DNA of 38,054 bases from Paraglomus brasilianum. Its lineage: Eukaryota. The stretch spans positions 1-38,054 of the forward strand of contig CAJVPI010000265.1 in NCBI GenBank assembly GCA_910592345.1, written 5' to 3'. Shown here one piece after another: positions 1 through 38,054 of the stretch (position 1 is the first letter of the stretch; the number at the start of each line of letters is the position of its first letter). The notes under the pieces are model-generated. The model made no database searches, was not told the origin of the DNA, and worked only from the letters and a program-made list of their open reading frames with translations. Made by a program: the position numbers and the translations under genes.

Positions 1-831
1 GCTAACTCTCTTTTGTAAACATTAGCAATCTTTTCTTCGATTGATTCAAAGAAACCTAGTGGTTCGTTTTCTGCATAGTATCCTTTTGGTACAAATGCAT
101 AGTAATCACACACTTCACCTTCATTAAAAATTTCTGCTTCTGATTTTCTATTAATATATGGATCTTTGATTCTTTCGAAATAAATATCTGGTTCTTCTTC
201 AGCAGTATCATATTCTGAAGAAGCAGAGCTTCGATGTTCCACATCATCACTTGGTTCGCTATCTTTTTCATTATCTATTTCCATTAAATCATACCATTCT
301 TCACCAGTTTTAGGAATTGGTTTCGATCTAATTTTTTTATTATTTTTTATTTCCGGTTTTGATAACCATTTTATTAATTCATCTATTGTTAAAATTGATT
401 TCTTTTTTTGTTCTCCTTGAGTATTAGAACTTGATCCTGCTTCTGTATTTGGAATACCATCAGTTAAAAGGTTGACTGCCGGCGCGCTTGCCTCTCTCGG
501 CTGGGTTGGTTGGTGCGTCGGTGGGTTTTCGTCAAATGATATGAGATCGCCTTCCGGGGTCGGTGCTGGGTTTTCTACTGGGGCTTGGTTTTGCGTCTGA
601 ATCGGATATTCAGCTGGTGGTATATTTTGCGTCGGGGTTGGGTTTTCAGCCGGATTTTGAATAGGTGGATTTCCTATTGGAGCTTGAGGGGGGGGTTTGC
701 ATTAAACGCAAAGCTGGTTGACATTGTCCCTTACGAAGGTTTCCATTTAAATTCATGTGTTTATTAAGATCTCGGGTTTTACCAGTTCTTATTTCTCTAT
801 TACATCCTGGGCATCTGAGTATCTTTGCCAT
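1..831 (-). CDS. N-terminal ~276 aa of a large protein: CxxC...H...C zinc finger, Pro/Gln/Asn-rich linker, acidic tract; 1-nt frameshift at a C8 run; open to the window edge
   Basis: Starts MAKILRCPGCNREIRTGKTRDLNKHMNLNGNLRKGQC. Removing one base from the 8-G run at 688-695 joins it to a stop-free frame QAPIGNPPIQNPAENPTP...IDELIKWLSKP...PLGFFESIEEKIANVYKREL continuing to base 1. Confidence 0.65.
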
Positions 832-919
832 AATGATATATAATCTGTGTTTTTTATTAATATAACCAGATCTTTTGTTTAAATTAAAATAATTAATTCA
901 GTTATATAAATTTATCGAA

Positions 920-1183
920 ATGCTGATAGAATATACATGCGAATATATAGACAACTCTGGAAAATATATATGCGAATATATACACAACTCTGGAAAAGTT
1001 TGTGGACGCAAATGCCGACGTCGTGAAGGATGCTATGAACATTGGAGAGCTAAAAAACGTGTTTTATGTAAGGTTTGTGGAAAGCCTACTGCTTCTGCAC
1101 CGGGAACATGTAAAAAACATGCTAAAGGGTATTATGTTATGCAGTTTTATGCCCGACAGATGCAAAACATCCTTACTCCGTAA
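920..1183 (+). CDS. Small basic Cys/His-rich zinc-finger protein (87 aa)
   Basis: ATG start, intronless. Contains C-x9-C-x3-C-x5-C-x2-H followed by CxxC...CxxH, and an internal 33-bp tandem duplication (YTCEYIDNSGK/YICEYIHNSGK). Confidence 0.6.
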   Translation: MLIEYTCEYIDNSGKYICEYIHNSGKVCGRKCRRREGCYEHWRAKKRVLCKVCGKPTASAPGTCKKHAKGYYVMQFYARQMQNILTP

Positions 1184-1222
1184 GACTTCAGATTAGAAAT
1201 CAGCAAGAGCTGACATAAAATT

Positions 1223-2221
1223 TACACCGAAATTGTCCTAAAAAGTTTGCTATATTTTTTGTTATACTTTCTGCCTTTAGAAAACTAATAGAATGCTAAT
1301 GCTTCGTTTCACTTCGCATTTACAAAAAGCTAATTGTTGACTAAATAGATAACTAATGCGAAGCGTAGCGGAGCATTCGGAGTCGCTATGCTCCTCTAGA
1401 ACAGTAAACGTTTTAGTAATCGAATAAGATAACTATGCTCCGCTACGCTTCGCATTTGGAGTCGCTATGCTCCTCCGGGTCAGAAAGCTACATAGTAATC
1501 AAAATAAATACACCCATCGTGTACCTAAAATTTATTTTTTCCTTCGCACTTCACTTAAAAGTTCATGCTCACAGTAATAGAATGCTAATTAGTTAACAAA
1601 TAAGATAACAAAAAAAACACCAAACATGAATAAATCATTATTCATTTTGATGTCATAATAAGATTTAATCAACAAATATAGAGGATGTGCTCACAGTATT
1701 AGAAAGCTAAATATTGATAAAATATTATATTTAAAAAATACACCAAATAATTTTAATCGTTATTGATCTACTATCTGTTTTATTAATAGAAAGCTAAATG
1801 CTAACTAAAACAGATGACATGCTCCGCTTCGCTCCGCAACTGCGTCACACACACCTAAGGTGTGTGCTCCTTAGTTATTAGTGTTAGAAAGCTAATTGTG
1901 AACTAAACAGATATCTAATGCTCCGCTACGCTTCGCATTCGGAGTCGCTATGCTCCTCCTGGTCAGAAAGCTAAATAGTGATCAAATTGGATATCAAAAA
2001 AAACACCAATCATAAATCAATCATTATTCATTTTGATATTGTAATAAGTTTTAATCATTGAATACAGCAAAACATCAGTCATGTACCTAGAAAGCTAAAT
2101 AGAGATCAATAGGATATCAAAAAAAAATACACAAAAATAAAAATAATCATTATTGAATTTGATGTTGTGATAAGTTTTAATCATTGAATACACCAGAATA
2201 CACAGAAATTGTCCTAAAAAG
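1223..2221. repeat. Modular repeat and hairpin array bounded by 23-bp direct repeats
   Basis: TACAC(C/A)GAAATTGTCCTAAAAAG at 1223-1245 and 2199-2221. AGAAAGCTAA-like boxes near 1290, 1324, 1482, 1579, 1701, 1788, 1886, 1965, 2089. 23-bp hairpin cassettes at 1298, 1355, 1434, 1818, 1917. GGAGTCGCTATGCTCC occurs three times. Confidence 0.9.
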
Positions 2222-2239
2222 CCCACTAATATAATACTC

Positions 2240-2585
2240 CATTTGTTACCTTATTTAGGAGGGTTGGATAATCAAAATAATTATGTATTTCAAGATGACA
2301 ATGCTCAAATTCATTGAGCAAGGTCAACTTTGTGTTGGATTTCAGATAATAATATTGATCAACTTCCCTAGCCTGCACAAAGCCCCGACCTCAACCCTAT
2401 CAAGAATATTTGGGATGAATTAGAGCATCATATTCATAAGCACATTCCTCTACCAAAAAATGAAACTGAACTGTTCAATCTGTTGGTCTAACATAGATGA
2501 ATCAGTTTATGGAAATTTGGTTGAAAGTATGGAGTGCCATGTTCAAGCTGTAGTTAAAGCTAATAGGCATCCTACACCTTATTGA
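2240..2585 (+). pseudogene. Tc1-family (DD34E) transposase relic, C-terminal half
   Basis: HLLPYL...YVFQDDNAQIH*...LP*PAQSPDLNPIKNIWDELE...NLVESM...VQAVVKANRHPTPY*. 34 residues separate the second D from the mutated E(K) position; in-frame stops. Confidence 0.9.
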
Positions 2586-3172
2586 TAAAGTCAAATAAAC
2601 TTCATTGATGTGACATTTTGATAAAAAAAAACCTGATGTAAATTGCTATGTAGATTGTTGAGAATTTTGAACTTGAAATTTTATAAAAAAAATCGAGCAT
2701 TACTATATTCAGAAAAAAGTCCCATGACCCGTGTACATGATCAATAAAGAATTTATTTCTTACACATTACTTGATTGCTCCTTTGTATTTGCTATGATAA
2801 TGAGAAGACTGAATGAGTGACAGTTCAGGGTAGGGTGCTTTGCAAAACATTCTATCTATAATCCAGTTGACATTTAAACAGATTACATTATCACAAGTAT
2901 TGTGAATGTTAAGCTGGTTGCTCAATGCAAATAATTAAAAACCAATAAATATTTTGTGTTTGCTACAGGCAGCATGGAATGACCAAAAAGTCCTGACTTC
3001 ACCAGCTATGTTTTTTATTTTATAGCCACTTTCAAGAAAGGAACACATAAGTTGCTGGAAAAGAAGTGGCCCATAAACAAGTAACCCTATGGTCTGTGTG
3101 GGGGCTGTACCCATACCCAAGGTTGTTACTATTCAATAAGCAGCAAAGTCATAATAGGGTTCCAGGTATTAG

Positions 3173-3537
3173 TGTTATGGTCGAATGGTCTGGGGTTTGG
3201 GATAGCAATTAATCATTCGTGTAGGGGTGTTCTTCCGACCGGGGAATAATTTATATAATTAAATTAATGCGCGCTTCTCAACTCCCTATCAAAACACTCG
3301 TGATTCCAAATAAGGGTACCCACAATAAAATAATAAACAGGGTTGGTATTTCGACTAATCGGGTTCCGTCACTTGTCTCAAACTAATTAAACAATATTTG
3401 TTTTAATAAATAATTAATAACTCTCGTTCCCCAATTAAGAGTACTAAATCGACGGATAATTTATACAGCTCAAGTGAGTCGTTTTTACAGCTTAATTGAG
3501 CCGTTTATTAATATCCGGTTAAATAATTAATATCACA
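3173..3537 (-). mobile_element. Possible solo LTR (~365 bp)
   Basis: TG...CA ends with short imperfect inverted termini (TGTTATG / TATCACA), non-coding, CpG-containing unlike the left flank. No target-site duplication found. Confidence 0.3.
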
Positions 3538-4748
3538 ACGATGAAAGAAAGTAAAGTTTCGATTTCAAAGGGAATCGTTTATTATTATTCCATGGAGTGA
3601 GAATTATTGTTTTATACAATTAGGTTACACTTATATATTTAATATTAGTTATCACAATTGTTACAAATCACCGAAAGATGACACTGTTACTAGTGCAAGC
3701 TGACTTGCAATTACATAGAGTATTAGCAGCAGTGGCAGAACTCTGTGAACAGGAAGCTTTTATGAGACCACCATCAAGAGTTTCTAAACCTTTACATGGA
3801 AGTGACCTTCGATCAAGTCCTGCTCGATCTATCCGAGGAATGTTAATGCGTACCAAGTCTCCGACGTTGGCGTATGATCAGGTGCATCAGTTTCATTCTC
3901 GTTATTGTTCGAATTGCAATATACTATCCCATCGCTTACACTTTTACTATCTTGTACTCTGGTATGCTTCCTCATCTCTGATTCCTTGGTCATAGAGCTC
4001 CTTCATTAGAGCAAAATTGGCTTGACCAAATACAAGCTCGTAAGGAGTCTTACCAGTCGCTGGCACGTTTGCGTATTCATCGCCCAGTTGATACGTTTAT
4101 TATTACGCGTATAAAGTGATTGATACATTATCACCAGCAATATGTTGTACTCAAAGAAATAATAACACTGATGTGTAACCATAGGCAATCCGAAACTCCA
4201 GTCTTCACGCCTATTATCCTCCAACCAAGCCGAAAGTTTCATCTCCAGTATGTCATTCCCTTTCTCCACTAGCCCTTATGATTGGGGATGACGCGGACGA
4301 CCATTTATGATCACTGTTTTCGGGTAAAGAGCTATCATAATCAGACTCTTTATTATTTGTGCCACATACTCTTTCCCGTTGTCAGAATGCAGGATCCGTG
4401 GTGCACCAAATGTCATAAATATGTCGAACAGGAAGCTAGCAACATATTTCGCCTCTTTACTTTTCATTGGCTTTGCTCAGGAGAATCGAGTAAAATGATC
4501 TCTTGCATGAGCGATCCATCAATATTCTCCATCTGGGCGTGCCCTCATGTCTTGAGATCAATCTTCAGAAAGTGGTTAGTATTTACTTGGCTAATTTTAA
4601 ATATTGCAAAACCATAATACTAATATGATCTATACCTGCATTCTGGATAAAAACTCCAACTCAATGATAGGTTTTATCTCTGCCAATAGTCGCCTGTTTA
4701 CACATTTAGCCACAAGTGCAGAAGTGGACGTGGAACCCAACTACGTCA

Positions 4749-5255
4749 ATAGTCAAGTCGACGGGACGGGGATTTTTTTCTTTACTACATCGAAATTTCA
4801 CTATATCGAGAATTTTCGATATAGTAAAGTTCATATATAAGTGGTGGCATAAATCTTCACTATGTTGCAAATCTTATATCAGTGTAATAACAAACGTTAT
4901 TTTTACTGACGAATCTAATACCGCTGAACGATTTATATGAAATGTACTGGTACTAAGTTGTTTAACGTAGCAAGTGTCATACCGTTCAATTATGTAGAAA
5001 CATTCAAAAAACGAAAGTACTTTAATCAACACGTGTTTGTATTATGATCGGTCAAAAACTATCAGGTGCTACAATCTTCACTATATCGAGATGCAATCTA
5101 CTAATATTGTTTGAGAAAAAACTTGACTATATCTAATACTATATAACTTCATTATATCGAGGGAAAATTTAATAATACTGTTTTTGTATCAGGGGAATTC
5201 TTTCTATAGCGCGAAATTCACTGTATCGAGACTTGACTATATCGAGGGTTGACTG
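4749..5255 (-). mobile_element. pogo/Tigger-type non-autonomous element, left TIR truncated; same family as 16909-17094
   Basis: Right end ACTATATCGAGGGTTGACTG followed by TA; many internal ACTATATCGA repeats; both ends align with the 186-bp MITE at 16909. Confidence 0.85.
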
Positions 5256-5335
5256 TATAATGCTTACAGATCTGAGAAATGAATTGTTATTTATTCAAGC
5301 GGGAATATGCATTTTGATGTTATTATAACCATATA

Positions 5336-6070
5336 CAGTGAACCCTCTCTAATATCAACCCCACGAGACCGGCCAATTTCGTTGATATAGCGGGGTTTGA
5401 GGGGGTGTTGGGTTTTTAAATAATGACGTTATATGTAATGATGTATATACGATACTTATGTCTCGAATAAAATCTTAAACTTTATTTATGATAAAAATCT
5501 CTTTATTTCTTTCTCCATATAAACTAAACCAATTTGTTCACTCTTCTGAATTCTGGTTCTCTCTCTCTTTGATGAAAAAATCTGTTAACTTTTTTTGTTG
5601 CCTCGCCTCGTATATATTCGATTGATGCGTCGCGACAGACTTTGCAATTTTGGCATGTTTTGCCCTTCTACGAATTTGGCGGGGTCTTGCTGTTTTATAT
5701 ACTGCAGAAGTAATTTGCATTGTTCCAATGCCGTAGAATGAGATTTCAATGTCGCTGCCTTCATTACAACTATCAGAATTAGACGTGTGGAGTATGGTTA
5801 TACTTTAGTATGCAAATCGTATTATAAAGAGACGATATTGTAGATTAGAATTTTAAATTTTAAAATACTAATTATATTGATGTTGATATCAGCGAGGTAC
5901 ATTTAATTAGGAATAAAATCTGATATGTGTTGATAGGGATATCAACGGGGTATGATATCCAAATTGATATATGCGGGAGAATTTAAATATGGAGAAATCC
6001 GTTCTGTAACCACTGTTGCTAATAAAGAGAGGTTGATATTAACGGGGTGGATATTAGAGAGGGTTCACTG
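5336..6070 (-). mobile_element. pogo-like deletion derivative (735 bp) with intact TIRs and TA TSD
   Basis: 21-bp perfect TIR CAGTGAACCCTCTCTAATATC with TA on both sides; residual ORF ending RQQKKLTDFF (PIP-box typical of pogo transposase C-termini). Confidence 0.9.
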
Positions 6071-7081
6071 TAGTCTGAATAGCTTACACAGTTCTGTAAC
6101 CTGCATGCTGTAGTTCTTCATGCAGTTCCCCGATCACGCGCTCTTTAACGCAACGTATACTAATCTTTCTGATTTTTTCTCGACTAAATAAACAGATTCT
6201 CCAATCTTCATGGTTGCAAATGCTTCTTAGCCCATTTTTTCAATTTTGCTGGATGTTGTAAATCAGTTTCACCCAAGACTTCCTTTACAATATCAGCAAG
6301 CTCTTGTGAAATTAATGATTTTCCCTGAAACTTTTGATCTAAATTGTTGAGATATTCCTCAACTAAGCTGTTGAATTTCTCAATGTGAATGAATTTGCAG
6401 ACATTTTATGGTGGCTTTATTAAAAAATGTAAACAAATTGGTATTATTTCGGTTGCGTTCAAGAAACTATACAACAAATGACAGAAATTCCTAAAGATCT
6501 ATCCACGCGTCTTACGTGATCTAATCAACTGCACTGATTGTTCATGTGATAATTGAATGTTACATACGAACTAATCGTCTTCACCACACTATTTTATTTA
6601 GACTGGTCAAAATTTTGTTAATAATCGTTCTCATAAATGTAGAGTGTTACATACTACTACTAATACATATAATTTTAACGTAATTATACAGTACCATCTC
6701 CACAGTCTCCAATCAACACTCATATTTGCTGAAAACAAACGGGCTTCTTTACAACCTAATCAAGACAAAATCATTGCCGAAAAGAGTAAGATAATTGCTA
6801 AGTACATGAAGACGATGGCAAAGAAATGCCTAACTTAACTCGGGAAATTTTAGCAGGAGTGATAACCAAAGCCAAGTTTGTCTAACGATATTCAAGTGAT
6901 GGATGAAGCCACTTGAACCAAGATTGGTAACATGGTCAAGGAGCTGATGGTGAAGATGGAAGTAAATAACACTTGTAATGATTTTCAATTAGAATTTTAT
7001 TGGGCAAGGAATAAGGAAGCAGTAAAAAAATAATCCGAGTTGCGGCAAATAGTTCTTATCCAGAATCAGAATTTATCGGTA

Positions 7082-7264
7082 CAGGTGAAACCTGTCTAAT
7101 ACTAAACCGGCGCTGATTAAACCGGTCTCGGGTTTAACCGGTCGCCTCACGACTGTACCAAACTTCTTTAATTAGAAATTTTCTTTATCTAAACGTTTAC
7201 CTGAATGGCTAAACCGGCCGAAAAACGGCAAATCAGTTCGGCCGGTTTAGACAGGTTTCACCTG
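7082..7264. mobile_element. Tc1/pogo-superfamily MITE (183 bp)
   Basis: 18-bp perfect TIR CAGGTGAAACCTGTCTAA, TA flanks, internal TAAACCGG repeats. Confidence 0.9.
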
Positions 7265-9242
7265 TATTTTGTTTCCTCGTTATAGACTAACAAGAATATG
7301 AGATGGAAGTAGACCAGCTAGAAATAATAAACCAACCATGGGAAAACGACAAAATAGCAGAAAAACTCCTTGATCCCAAAGGTTACGCTAAAATCTGAGG
7401 TAAAAATAAAAGTAATTCAAGTCAAATATTTCCTTTATGATTAATACTAGCCATCTTGGCTACGGCGAGAGATAACAGCAATGGTATGCTGGATACTGAG
7501 GAGGAAGCCAGAAAAAAGACAGCAAGGATAGCGCCTTTTCAACCATCAAGCCACAATTGCTCGATGTTCACTTGTCTGATATAATTAAGAATCTATTAGC
7601 TAGTGACAACACCATTAGCGGTCACCGTAGGTGCTGGCTAATAAAGACCGCAAATAACCTGTTTGGATATAATGTCTTTTTGCCTAAATTTTTTGATAAA
7701 TATGTAGATAAAGCATAACACATAATTTCGTGTATAATATTATTTGTGACGATAGTAAACTTTCGTAGAATTTTGATTCGCAATACGAATTAGTGATTAT
7801 ATAATACAACATAGCTTTTGTTCGATTAAAGATTAATTCGTTTTAAATTTTGACTTTACTTCATCGCTTCGCTTGTTAAGAATGTCTTACGAAAATTATT
7901 TGCAAAAATGACAATACTGTTTCGGTTCTTTTTGGCCGAGCAGCCGAATGGTATATTGTAAACCATTCTCTCTTGAGAAATTAAAATGCATGGTTGAAGT
8001 CTCCCAAAGTCGTTTATACGTTAATCCGTGAATTATGGAGCCACAGATTATGTTGAATAGGAAACTTCAGGTATAAGAAAATCTACAAATAGAGTCGACG
8101 ATATTCTTGAAAGTACAACATAAGCTACCCCTATACGAATATTGTCCACTCAATTTTGTCCTGGGTAATGTATTGTGCAGACGATGTGGATTGGTGTATG
8201 TGAACCAAATTGTGTGAATTACAACTTACCAAACAATTTAAAGAATTGCAATGATATTAATATGCATCGCATATTCACGTTTATCTTATCTAAACACAAG
8301 TCATGCGCTTCACATAAAGATCCATATTAATATTAGTCGATAGATTTTAATACCACTAATATTACAGTATTAGTATATATATTTTATGATATATTATAAT
8401 TACCATCGCTCATGTTGTTAAATTATTATTAAATATACTCGGGTTAAATTTCAAATGATACAACGCACTTTCCGAATGCACTGTATTTCTAGCAAAAGAC
8501 CTTAAGGAATATACGGTCTCCGGATGGTTTGCAAAAAAAGCCATGTTTAAGTGTTCATGAAAGAGGATGAAGAGACTTGGGATATCAAAGGTGAACTATG
8601 TTTGACATTGTGGATAAATTAGAGTATAGGTCGCTTTCAACAGCTCATCTCCCCTTACCAAATGAAAAGACGACCTCTCAACAGTTTGTTTTGACCGTTT
8701 ATCATGTGATTTAATATTTAGGGAGACGCATTAAATCCATCTCAATTTCCTTTGCTTGGGGAGATGAGCAACCATAGTCATAATTAGCTAATGAGTTAAT
8801 TAGCTATGCAACGGATAAACCTCAGTATCGGTGAAACCCTGACTTTACTGCGGATATTAATATATCAGGAACATCAAACTTTTGCCCTACCCAGTATGCA
8901 TTTTTGCATAGTTTGACGATGAGGGGTGGACACACTTATTTTCCTTAAAAGGAATTTAGAATAGCAGTCCCCACAAATTCACTATTTTTTACACTGCAGA
9001 TGCTGTACGCATTATGCTTGGTTCTTCCCACAAATTGACTTGACCATATTATGCATAATAAAAATCATACGATGAATTTTATCAAATTACCAAGATGGGG
9101 GATGGTCCCCAAAAGTGGGAAATCTATATTACTGTACCAACAACATGGCCTATTTAGGGTATTATCATTCAAATCGAAATGCCCACGAGTTTAAACAAAG
9201 AACGCTACCTATTTGACGCTTTATTTTACTATTACCGGTACG

Positions 9243-16813: not shown

Positions 16814-16908
16814 TATTATTAAATATCTAAAAATCATTTGGTACCTTTCGAAAGTAGGTTTATCTATTACAGAAATCTGTTCTCTTATTTTGTCATTACT
16901 CTTGCATA

Positions 16909-17094
16909 CAGTCAAACCTCGATATAGTGAAGCCTCGATATAGTGAATTTCGCGCTATAGTAAAGAATTCCTCTGATCCAAAAACAGCATTTAGTATAAA
17001 CTTTACTATATTGAAAGATTTCGATACAGTGAATTTTCGATATAGTGAAGAAAAATGCCCGTCCCGCTGACTTCACTATATCGAGGTTTGACTG
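16909..17094. mobile_element. Young pogo-type MITE (186 bp)
   Basis: 24-bp perfect TIR CAGTCAAACCTCGATATAGTGAAG, TA TSD. Confidence 0.95.
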
Positions 17095-17648
17095 TACTAT
17101 TGCACTATTACTATATAATTTTATAATGGGTAAATTAGCATAATAGCTAATGCTCTCCAAAATTATGATAGTAGTGAATCTTTGTTAATTTCAAAATTGG
17201 AGGTTTTAGTTTAGGATTATCAGTTAATTCCTCAATTATAATTACTGGCTTTTTATATTATTGTCTTATTATTATGGAAAAACCATCTTATTTGTATATT
17301 ACTTTTTGTCCCCCTTTTTTTTAGCTTAAATTAATTTCACTTTCTCAATGATTATGATAGCATTACTATTACTGATGCTTGCAAACACAACATATTCCAA
17401 GAAACATTTCTTTCTCTTTGCGGTTTATGACGTTGATCCAGTTTCCAATATAGTGTAACATTTGCGAACAACAACAACAGCACTATTTATGCATCTGTGC
17501 ATGAATATCACCTGCCATATTACTTGGACTTAGAATGAAACGCTTTGTTGATAGTTTGTGGAAATAGTCATGCAGACACGTGTTCAATTTGACAAACCTA
17601 TGCAAATCAACTCCTTTGGATCATGGGTTTTCCCCTACCCTTTCCAAA

Positions 17649-25859: not shown

Positions 25860-27141
25860 AAGTATCTTAACAAAAAATGATGTCAGAGCATCCGGAGGTG
25901 TTGATATTAGACTTAGTTGCTTTCTTTCAAACTATCGTTCAGCTTCATCAACTACTTTATTTTAATCTTGTTTAGTTCCTTTCCTAATTCCGCAAGAGAC
26001 TTCTATAATTGCACATAAATTAATAAATTAACATAATATATTTATATTTACTACATTCATGCTCTCCTTACCTGTGATAGACAGTTCAGCCACCTCTCTA
26101 CTGGTTGTAGTTGTTCCAGAATAGTCCAATCACTTCCAAATTTTCCATATGCCAACAGACTTGGGAATATTTAATATTGTATTTAGCTCAGATAATCCTG
26201 TTTTGGATAACTCCCATTTTACTAATATGGCAATATCTGACATCTCCATTATTTGCCAAAATAAGGCCTGTCAAAAGAAAAGAGAAATGAGACTGAAAAT
26301 TTATGTTAAAGCATCAAATGCAAAATATATACCCGTCAGTATGTAATATGGGATTTTCAGCTAATGTTTCATACTGATTAATTATTTCTGTAGCCCATGG
26401 AATCAAACTCCCAACATATGTCTTCCTTATTCTTAATCTTAAAGTTGAAAGAATGATTTAGTATTAGTGAAATGCTAGAGGTGCAAGCAGAATCATGTAT
26501 CCTAACCTTGAATGATGTAATTCTCTGGGCTTTATTGTCAGTAGCCTCATAGTTAGGTTTTGTGCTATCAATATAGTCCTTCCTAACCTATGAGCAAGAG
26601 CATCAATAGACTCAATATGACTTAACCATATACTCTGCACTGTTACAGGTGATTCTGCTTGTCTCGCAGCAATATGTGCAAACCAGATTGCCTGATAAGC
26701 TATTGCTTTGAAGTAGCAGAATTGTCGTTGGCTCATTTCATAGCAGACCACATCTACATAGTACTAGAAAAGGAACGTCAAACAAGCAGTTCATCACTGG
26801 CAACTAGCAGTCCCAGCTTGCACTCGAAAAGGAAGCATCGAACATGCAGTTCATCACTAGCAACTAGCAGTCCCAGCTTGCGCTACGTTGAACATAAACA
26901 AGCAAGTTCATCACTGGCAACTAGCGGTCCCAGCTTGCGTTTAAAAAACAACTAATAACTACCTTCCAGCGGTCAAGGCTTTTCTGCTAAATCCGGAATC
27001 TGAAGCTGTGATGTCTCGAAGATTCTTTTTTACTTTATCAAGTACATATTTCCAATCTTTTCGTTCCAGCTTATCACGATAATACTTTACTATATTAGCA
27101 CACGTCCAGTCTATAAATGTGGTATGGCGATAAAAATCCAT
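25860..27141 (-). pseudogene. Decayed member of an expanded Glomeromycotina-type gene family (effector/REase-like)
   Basis: N-terminus MDFYRHTTFIDWTCANIVKYYRDKL...VKKNL resembles helical header domains of AM-fungal hypothetical proteins. Downstream frames are broken by stops and frameshifts, with remnant GT-AG introns. Family call is from recall only. Confidence 0.4.
26765..26939. repeat. ~60-bp tandem repeat, 3 copies
   Basis: Core AGTTCATCACTRGCAACTAGCRGTCCCAGCTTGC in units starting near 26781, 26841, 26897. Confidence 0.9.
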
Positions 27142-27398
27142 GAGTGTGGGTTTACGCTTGGAAATTTCTGGGTTTATATACTGTATATATAGTACAAAGC
27201 CACGAACGAGCGAATTTCCATAAATGGGTAGATTGCGAATTACTTGAATAATCACATGAGGGATAATACGTACGCTGTTTCATAATTCAATGCGTAATTG
27301 GCTGATTTATTTTATTTTTGATGCACTTCGAGACACTCAGTCCAGAACTCAGTTGTTTCAGTCCAGAAGTGAGACAGGTCCCCAAATGAGGTACAACA

Positions 27399-27640
27399 GC
27401 AACATGGATAATTGGATTTTGTTCCCAATTAATGTTTTGTTTGATAGTTGCACCTTCAGTTCTTTGGATAGATTTCACGCTGTGTTTTATAGCTTTTACA
27501 ATGAAAATATTTCTATACAATTACAACGCAAAATTGACGAGAAAATTAAAAATGAAACAAAAAATATAACAGAGGCGGCATATGAAGATTGACAATTATT
27601 AAACATGCCAGCAACTCAATTATTTTGTATGTTTATTAAT
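27399..27640 (+). pseudogene. 5'-truncated duplicate of the 3' end of the 299-aa membrane-protein gene
   Basis: 27399-27470 is identical to 31721-31792 (72 bp); the alignment continues with indels into the 3' UTR. Confidence 0.9.
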
Positions 27641-29640: not shown

Positions 29641-31048
29641 AATAGTATTTAATTATAATAATGCGCATCTACATAACAATTAATTATCGTAATGTGCCAC
29701 TCGAATAATCGCGGGACAAGAGGCGATTATTCTTCATCGATATAGGGATTAGCGGTTTCTCAGTTATACCGATAAGTTACCAGGAAATGAATGATGCATT
29801 TTGTGCGATGTTTGTACTCCCACTATGTTTGTACCGCTACTTGGCACTGCGCTAGTGTTACTGTCGATCGTATTGATTGCTGCGGCATCGTCGGAGTACT
29901 ATACAGGTACGGTAGATTGATAATCAGGATATTATCCATCTGTCATATACACAACGCTTTTTAGGGTAGAACAATTGGAGGAGAAGTACAACTTGAGACA
30001 CCGGATTTCAAGTCCGTTATACGCAACTAATTATTATAAGCATGCTGTTAAATAAGATTCCAATCCTTCCATTCTTGCTACTTTGTATATACCTCGTTTA
30101 AAAGTGCCAAGCATTTATGGCCCGATTAGTTTAAATAAAAAACAATTACAATACCGCGCCTGAACGTATGAGAGATAATCGGCATTCAAGCAAAAAAAAA
30201 ATATATAGCAATAAAGTATAAACTGGCAAAAACAGACATTTTGAGACAACAAAAATTTATTGTCGTGACTTAAGCGCGGTATATTATTCGGGCTCGACAA
30301 TAAATTTTGAAATCTCCTCAATGGTCGTTTCTTTGTCGCTGAGTTGGTTATCGGATGCTGATTGATAGATTTGGTTGTCAATACAAAGCAGTTTCATTAC
30401 AGTTTATTATGTCTTTTTGAATACTCCTAATTCGCCATTCGTAAGTAGCTGATACAGTAAGAGGTATTGGTACAAAACAGAAATTGAATTAAAAAATGAC
30501 TGTTTGTGAAACGCTTGATTGCTTGGTAATTTATCGAGTTTGCTCTGACTTGGAAAATTGAGGGAAGAATATTGGCACGAAAAGCATGGTTCAAAGAAAC
30601 GGACCGATTTTTTGCTTTTGGATTTATGGTTAGTATTAGGTTTTATTCTACAAGGTATAATCGTATACCAGAAAGATATAAAAAACCTGTCATTATAATT
30701 CCGGTTGAACCTCCACGGACTCTTTCACTTGTACATCGTGTATACAATTCATCCGTGTAACGAGTCGGATAACTTCCGGATTATCCGGGTATCAAATATT
30801 AGTATCTGATAATCGATATGCACAGCGCATGTAACAGGTAAACTTGGAAATAAAGTTTTGCGCCATTGAATACGTCGATTTAGAACTTGGTTATTTCTTT
30901 ATCGTTTCTTTTTTGGCTAATGCACTACCCAGCAAAAAATAATATGGAGAAAACCTATTCTAAACGATGAGTTATTTATAACAGCGGAGGGCATTTTCAG
31001 TTGCATATAAGAATAGTGGACACTTAATTTTTCAATTCTCTCGAAAAC

Positions 31049-31948
31049 ATGTATGCTCAATCAAAACTGTCGAACATTCAACTTCTGCTATCAATCATCC
31101 TCTTGTTTCCTCTTCTGGTTGATGCTCTTCTTCCTACCAGTACGGATGACGAATCGGACCCAATTAGCGAATCGGTCTTTGATTTGATGGCCACTGTTCT
31201 AATAGCATCAATTCTAACAATTGATGTCGATCGTATAGAACGTAGAAAAAAGCTTCTACAAAGGACATTCTTCTCTACCAGCCTATTTATTACATTGGGA
31301 ATAATTTCTCCCATGCAAATTTGGTTTTGCGCCAGAGCTTACAAAGTTACAAAAGATATCTTTTTTATTATATATCTTATAACAACACTTTTGTCGGGCG
31401 TTCTTCTATACGGATTCAATGCTGTTATGATATGTTGCATGCGAGATATACCCGTAAAATACTTTGACCTACTTCCTACATTTTTAACCTGTACATGTAT
31501 GTTCGGCAATGACTTGGTTTTCGGCTTTCTGGCTGTGAGACGAGGATACGTGAATTCGTCGACTTACTGGTTTGTGTTTGGACCCGTTATCCTAGCATTT
31601 TTTATTGGTGTAGGGATATTCATATATGTTCTAAACTGGGAACTGACATCTGATGATTATATGAAAGAGGATGAAAAGCTTAAAAAAATGTTTAAAGTTT
31701 ACGGGAGAAAATCTCGAAGGGCAACATGGATAATTGGATTTTGTTCCCAATTAATGTTTTGTTTGATAGTTGCACCTTCAGTTCTTTGGATAAAATTTCA
31801 CCTTACGTTGGGTTTTATAGCTTTTACAATGGAAGATATTTCTATGAAATTACAACGTAAAATTGAGGAAACTGAGAATGAAGTAAAAAGTAGAACCGAG
31901 TTGGCTAATGAAAAAGGGATTGTGATTGAAGTTGTTAACTTGAATTAG
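31049..31948 (+). CDS. Orphan integral membrane protein, 299 aa, signal peptide plus about 7 TM segments, intronless
   Basis: Intact 900-bp ORF; hydrophobic leader ending VDA; seven hydrophobic stretches; charged loop between the 5th and 6th; charged C-tail; TATATAA ~45 bp upstream. Confidence 0.8.
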   Translation: MYAQSKLSNIQLLLSIILLFPLLVDALLPTSTDDESDPISESVFDLMATVLIASILTIDVDRIERRKKLLQRTFFSTSLFITLGIISPMQIWFCARAYKVTKDIFFIIYLITTLLSGVLLYGFNAVMICCMRDIPVKYFDLLPTFLTCTCMFGNDLVFGFLAVRRGYVNSSTYWFVFGPVILAFFIGVGIFIYVLNWELTSDDYMKEDEKLKKMFKVYGRKSRRATWIIGFCSQLMFCLIVAPSVLWIKFHLTLGFIAFTMEDISMKLQRKIEETENEVKSRTELANEKGIVIEVVNLN

Positions 31949-37925: not shown

Positions 37926-37977
37926 CTGCAATAAAATTACAATAGACCGATTTGTAACTCGTTTCAGTAAAGTGTAA

Positions 37978-38054
37978 GCGATTGAGTAATGCGATTGAGT
38001 AATGCGATTGAGTAATGCGATTGAGTAATGCGATTGAGTAATGCGATTGAGTAA
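37978..38054. repeat. (GCGATTGAGTAAT)n 13-bp minisatellite running to the window end
   Basis: About 6 perfect units. Confidence 0.95.

Follow-up and report, generated by a model that had tools for sequence, protein, structure and literature searches.

The DNA analysed here, a stretch of 38,054 nt from Paraglomus brasilianum (hereafter the window), begins inside a gene. On the minus strand, ORF1 runs from 831 to 1 and off the window; ORF2 (920-1183) is read in the opposite direction on the plus strand, and the ATGs of the two are separated by an AT-rich spacer of 88 bp (832-919) that may serve as a bidirectional promoter. Beyond ORF2 lie a repeat array, a short terminal motif and the remains of a Tc1/mariner transposon. 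The initial annotation had read this region as the terminus of a Polinton- or virus-like element, pointing to two divergent, intronless Zn-finger ORFs in a neighborhood of spliced host genes. The divergent ORFs are present at the positions given above, and in the one host gene that was spot-checked, an aldehyde dehydrogenase, the exon ends have GT donor sites.

The start codon of ORF1 is the ATG at 831 on the minus strand, and the first part of the gene (831-697) encodes a small Cys/His finger, which is followed by a Pro-rich linker and the start of a terminal-protein-like domain. By tblastn, residues 1-45 of the relatives P0009 and P0010 align to 831-697 at 91%, and residues 43-244 align to 662-3 at 75% in another frame; because the two parts of the relatives match in different frames, the window polB is frameshifted within a G-run at 688-695. 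The length of this G-run differs in further contigs from the same sample, and the shift may be either a real lesion or an assembly slip. The window copy looks young, and it may be defective, since its polB frame is broken in the G-run.

The window covers polB up to residue 244 of P0010, and the gene was characterized further through its relatives. Residues 100-233 of the ORF1 open frame, used as the query, recovered 27 longer relatives among 313 candidates. Names are attached to 26 of the 27, all of them Glomeromycota, from nine genera (Dentiscutata, Gigaspora, Racocetra, Cetraspora, Diversispora, Acaulospora, Entrophospora, Paraglomus, and Ambispora), and decayed gene models are common among them. 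P0191 from Paraglomus occultum (1374 aa; match to ORF1 with an E-value of 7e-67) is a full-length polB relative with what we take to be exonuclease II/III, polymerase A/B/C, and EndoVII motifs. P0191 itself falls under the PF03175 threshold (E 0.01); PF03175 was found in 7 of 20 polB relatives (E 0.001), PF02945 in 7 of 29 relatives in one set and 12 of 20 in another, and ESM Atlas clusters carry PF03175/PF02945 at 0.97. Presumably the polymerase belongs to the divergent 'Beta', endonuclease-VII-bearing class, a placement made from the weak PF03175 match and general features of the class, not from the PMC8502044 reference set. The window thus holds the 5′ end of the gene and its relative P0191 the catalytic motifs, and ORF1 is, as judged by homology, more than a Zn-finger ORF: it is the 5′ end of a protein-primed polB (pPolB) gene, of which the small finger is a part. 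A protein-primed polB had been foreseen in the initial annotation, and relatives, motifs, and fold matches all bear this out.

The N-terminal 541 aa of P0010 were modelled with a pLDDT of 74 and include a confident α/β domain. The best fold match of this half of the polymerase is a protein of Drosophila-associated adintovirus 2 (E 7e-23), with further matches to the pPolBs of MELD virus (E 2e-10) and mavirus (E 4e-4) and to bidnavirus-like pPolB proteins. In the PDB, the model best matches Y-family polymerases, among them an isolated little-finger domain; these matches are weak (best E 3e-3). In the portion of PMC11071308 available to us, a Y-family little-finger fold is reported for pPolB terminal proteins, and N-terminal terminal-protein and vOTU domains are given as characteristic of Maverick/Polinton pPolBs. 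Both domains can be recognized in P0010 as modelled, the terminal protein by its weak little-finger match in Foldseek. The predicted vOTU residues Asp360, Cys363, and His488 are kept in 88, 89, and 89 of 93 aligned rows, respectively, a conservation that is compatible with an active vOTU. A PDB sequence search with P0032 as the query gave no match. In a separate observation, residues 30-146 of P0034, a Gigaspora margarita gene model, match the polB N-terminal linker; outside this segment P0034 is a different protein, which has no Pfam match and in which palm-like, SF1-helicase-like, and HNH-like motifs were picked out by eye. It could be one of the polB-helicase replicases that PMC11071308 names, or else a mis-joined model.

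ORF2 encodes a Cys/His-rich protein of 87 aa that matched no Pfam family over the cut-off and is predicted from its invariant Cys/His columns to bind zinc. Its structure model was unusable for fold search (pLDDT 44). A 33-nt tandem duplication within it (930-997; joint at 936-970) is absent from other copies. Seven of 11 candidates were ORF2 relatives; an ORF2-identical protein, P0339, comes from a JGI metagenome record, and the ESM Atlas matches fall in three Mucoromycota clusters. A metagenome scan of 347 candidates provided eight loci, all shorter than 2.6 kb and reaching neither a terminus nor a downstream gene. All five of these loci that have DNA upstream of polB carry a divergent ORF2 relative beside it; the relative is broken in L007, and a similarly short divergent spacer is present in L001, L002, L003, and L008. 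In Gigaspora rosea, the ORF2 and polB relatives have consecutive accessions and lie on one contig of 140,443 bp. By this recurrent gene arrangement, ORF2 is assigned to the polB-bearing element.

The junction with the transposon was surveyed in 16 contigs over 2120-2360 from four runs. Five of them leave the match exactly at 2238 and continue into other sequence (records 1 and 2 of run X1, 7 and 8 of X3, and 10 of X5); past 2238 the paired contigs of X1 and of X3 differ from each other (agreement 0.62), and the X5 contig has a third continuation. Record 13 of X2 also ends its match at 2238. Two contigs match 2209-2242 with four differences, two cross 2238/2239 as the window does, four are partial Tc1 matches, and three are Tc1 copies without an insert that match from 2239. 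Followed by eye, the loose end of the uninterrupted Tc1 (X1, X6) extends the transposase frame by ten codons. Since contigs stop at 2238 and insert-free Tc1 copies match from 2239, the element ends at 2238 and is inserted in a Tc1 gene; what is seen is an integrated, multi-copy element with a discrete 5′-AG end. The initial annotation had proposed a minus-strand start at 2238, a Tc1 frame beginning abruptly at 2240, insertion into the Tc1 fossil, and a boundary shared among copies near 2221-2238. The start reads as claimed, Tc1 DNA homology begins at 2239 with its first whole codon at 2240, and the insert-free copies and the contigs of several runs that stop at 2238 agree with the other two proposals.

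The interrupted Tc1/mariner fossil (2239-2733, plus strand) is the 3′ half of the gene and contains stops and a frameshift. With stops written as X, it matches DDE_3 (PF13358) with an E-value of 1.2e-7 and 32.2 bits against a cut-off of 28.6. Its right end may lie near 2733, a guess based on a TA that follows a motif resembling a terminus. From the sequence and the Maverick TSD size given in the accessible part of PMC8097293, the first 6 bp of the fossil (2239-2244, plus strand) are the predicted target-site duplication. The read evidence comes mostly from one sample (X1, X2, X3, and X6), which may be the source of the window; X4 and X5 are from one other study, and the contig evidence excludes runs X7-X11 and X12-X24 (share at most 0.2).

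The modular repeat array (1246-2198) is non-coding, with nine copies of a short core heading GC-rich/AT-rich modules of ~80-125 bp, one 23-nt module being inverted (1355-1377 versus 1917-1939). On its inner side is 1223-1245 (plus strand), a direct copy of 2199-2221 with 22 of 23 nt the same, and on its outer side are the terminal 40 bp of the element (2199-2238, minus strand, 5′-AGT), delimited by the contigs that leave the match at 2238. We found 24 non-trivial self-matches over 790 of the 1055 nt in 1184-2238, compared with at most one in 30 shuffles; 33 stretches of equal length elsewhere in the window gave at most four (97 nt). Of the 1-kb structured array described in the initial annotation, the array is therefore far above chance, whereas the structure is weak: DNA folding gave a best z of −3.5 (1351-1450), compared with −3.4 in the Tc1 fossil. 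We rejected a functional RNA in the array, as its folding is unremarkable and Rfam gave no match within 1-3000.

Array modules appear in changed order in L002 and L008, L007 has the subterminal motif twice, and L003 has no array match in 142 nt. The exact 17-nt subterminal motif was found in none of the eight metagenome loci, none of which extends to the terminus. Many joints in the contigs reorder modules ahead of the terminal motif, and record 2 of X1 and record 8 of X3 have only 2199-2238 in common with the window end. Because the similarity to other ends is confined to the last 30-40 bp, with the modules reordered, it is doubtful from these alignments that the whole of 1223-2238 is a TIR. 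The ends that share 2199-2238 or 2209-2242 but have different inner sequence may be the opposite end of the element, whose TIR would then be short or imperfect, or may belong to sister subfamilies.

Contig depth in X1 is ~540-720 on near-identical element contigs and ~90 on the flank, and in X6 the two are about equal; depth varies too much among runs of one sample and so gives no copy number. A sister subfamily, whose array block is of the L002 type and whose polB linker carries deletions, was observed in runs X1, X6, and X4 and in L002. Its depth is 6,400-8,500 in X1 and ~500-1,200 in X6, whereas X2 has 20 or none and the window flank lies at 6-120; this depth may reflect uneven amplification or free copies.

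Several other repeats occupy the window. A very high-copy unclassified repeat at 3170-3610, where contig depths in X1 sum to as much as 19,000, has many loose ends near 3173-3249 and 3583-3611 and a 22-nt tandem at 3460-3508. A decayed rve-type integrase on the minus strand (3668-4476; PF00665, E 9.8e-5, under the cut-off) lies outside the element end, with its match at 4276-4476, beyond 2238; we assume that it resembles a Ginger/KRAB-A-type transposase. Inverted repeats with 16-nt sub-repeats at 4749-5258 and 16903-17096, 11.6-12.3 kb apart and with a local pair at 16907-17096, are presumably pogo/Tc1-like ends. A 740-bp element (5334-6072) lies between 29-nt inverted repeats that are 97% complementary. 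Related stretches at 27260-27592 and 31028-31948 are 4.3 kb apart and share 77 nt at 97%; the latter contains a hydrophobic ORF of 306 aa with no Pfam match. There is a 60-nt tandem at 26767-26938, and a 13-nt tandem of 6.3 copies (37974-38054) that runs off the window end could be a satellite or telomere-like.

In our reading, the first 2238 nt of the window are probably one end of a virus-like element of the Maverick/Polinton kind that inhabits arbuscular mycorrhizal fungi (AMF) and here lies in a dead Tc1. The element's own polymerase would replicate a linear copy after its excision: the N-terminal terminal-protein domain would prime synthesis at the 5′-AGT end, and the neighboring vOTU protease domain would then cut the terminal protein off. 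The modular subterminal array would likely serve as an origin or as protein-binding sites, with ORF2, at a guess, as its candidate binder. Insertion of the copy into the chromosome, with a duplication of 6 bp, would be the work of an rve integrase, as expected from the family. The eight loci of less than 2.6 kb showed no gene for an integrase, packaging ATPase, capsid, or protease beside any relative, and no relative was found in viral contigs, prokaryote genomes, or phage and plasmid collections. Among 42 family members, gene-model fusions join polB to a host PP4R3 in P0011, a RING domain in P0027, a PIF1 helicase in P0235, and a further tail in P0158, with no integrase or capsid among them; the partners in P0235, P0027, and P0011 are possibly neighbors inside or beside the element.

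These absences, in the short loci and in the gene-model fusions, would also be expected of a linear pPolB plasmid with neither capsid nor integrase, whose ends were pasted in by host repair or a foreign integrase. In the available text of PMC8502044, Beta-class polBs are also placed in fungal and plant mitochondrial plasmids, and the accessible part of PMC7805220 describes a Rhizophagus Polinton without a detectable capsid gene. We nevertheless consider a plasmid unlikely: several junctions fall on one base, as from an integrase, and the named distant relatives are polBs from animal and Rhizophagus genomes. Moreover, mitochondrial-plasmid pPolBs lack the vOTU, whose Cys and His persist here, although cytoplasmic yeast plasmids keep it.

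A little less likely still is a Polinton-like or MELD virus with a tyrosine recombinase, for which 2238 would be an attachment site and one continuation the other end of a circle or concatemer. One continuation past 2238 does sit on a deeply covered contig (542 in X1, 314 in X2), and PMC8502044 describes MELD viruses from fungi that have a Beta polB and vary in their gene sets. That contig, however, is thinly covered in X3 (23) and missing from X6, contig depth does not measure copy number, and a 5′-AG end together with a terminal-protein polymerase fits linear replication. With repeated sequence on both sides and a window that starts within the element, the junction might also be an assembly chimera of two repeats; this is very improbable, as one X6 contig covers 1930-3290 with no other letters, record 4 of X1 covers 2213-2360, and the break sits on the base where other copies end.

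As an element kind, the Maverick/Polinton is already known from this phylum, and the suggestion in the initial annotation of an undescribed system is not supported. In the parts of these papers available to us, Rhizophagus (Glomus) intraradices is listed with Polintons in which no capsid gene was detected (PMC7805220), a recent Maverick expansion is reported in Rhizophagus (PMC8647823), and a survey of 24 AMF genomes with Maverick models from PF03175 and PF02945 describes Mavericks as 'expanded exclusively in Glomerales' and suggests horizontal arrival (PMC11952901). Maverick-type A32-like ATPases are reported in Glomus and Rhizophagus assemblies, with no tie to the present polB family in the accessible text (10.64898/2026.06.19.733378), and the available portions of PMC11296320, PMC10120064, and 10.64898/2026.10.13.758929 contain nothing specific to this element. 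The literature covered, with most subscription papers and Repbase outside its scope, held no Polinton for Paraglomus, Ambispora, Entrophospora, or Diversisporales.

The Glomerales elements share host phylum and element kind with the one described here but differ in their polymerases. The present polB family occurs in Diversisporales, Paraglomerales, Archaeosporales, and Entrophosporales, and none of its 26 named relatives is from Glomerales. Across the catalytic region, Rhizophagus polB (P0288/P0319) has ~50% identity and ranks within the best 120 of 6328 matches; over no more than 65 columns of the N-terminus, identity is 38-45%. A quick tree of the catalytic region, built from 163 of 253 eligible segments (all with at least 47% identity, the labelled ones, and 35 random ones), recovers the present family as a clade (SH-aLRT 100), with one further protein next to it (99) and Rhizophagus, weakly, as its sister (87). 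Among the matches listed, many animal-genome and other polBs are 30-45% identical to the present one. Beta adintoviruses and group-1-type animal Polintons likewise have a divergent, OTU-bearing polB with a weak PF03175 match; PMC8502044 describes fungal adintovirus-class polBs and restricts adintovirus-type virion genes to animals, in the text available. Vertebrate Mavericks are described, in the accessible part of PMC8097293, as having eight core genes, TIRs of 46-1447 bp, (AGT)2 or (AG)3 ends, and 6-bp TSDs. They likewise have intronless genes near a 5′-AG end, and their TIR range would accommodate either a short or a 1-kb TIR here. The end described here differs in reading AGTATT, without the repeated (AGT)2 or (AG)3 motif, which was described for vertebrate elements and may not define fungal ones.

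Within the family, the terminal-protein/vOTU region is 75-96% identical across four host orders: Paraglomus and Acaulospora are 93% identical over 256 columns of this region, and Paraglomus and Entrophospora 95% over 353 columns of the catalytic region. In a tree of 23 named segments, two subfamilies appear, each with mixed host orders, and a Diversisporales clade is rejected (p-AU 2e-80), a rejection that two old paralogous subfamilies alone would produce. The low polB divergence across orders hints at horizontal spread. This hint is weakened by strong purifying selection on Maverick genes, as reported in the available text of PMC8097293. Cross-contamination within one project is possible, most names sharing one gene-id style; records from Diversispora epigaea and Gigaspora rosea, in other gene-id styles, also have members of the polB family. 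The identity across orders, the mixed subfamilies, the identical ORF2 in an unrelated metagenome, and the sister subfamily very deeply covered in one run speak for crossing between orders. That this is an undescribed, still-mobile polintovirus lineage that crosses AMF orders as an infectious or episomal element is, in our view, a tentative minority possibility.

As an annotation, one Polinton-type end of a known element kind is ordinary. Its interest lies in a lineage separate from the Glomerales Mavericks and present with little divergence in four other orders. With the exact end, a marker ORF, and the target junction defined, full copies are retrievable from long-read assemblies; public relatives on longer contigs include RIB09306.1/RIB09307.1 (140 kb), RHZ50880.1 (248 kb), RHZ89289.1 (617 kb), and CAG8567191.1 (14 kb). 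If the element does cross between orders, these plant symbionts would have a small dsDNA virus, and DNA would have a way to pass among fungi that have long been regarded as clonal.
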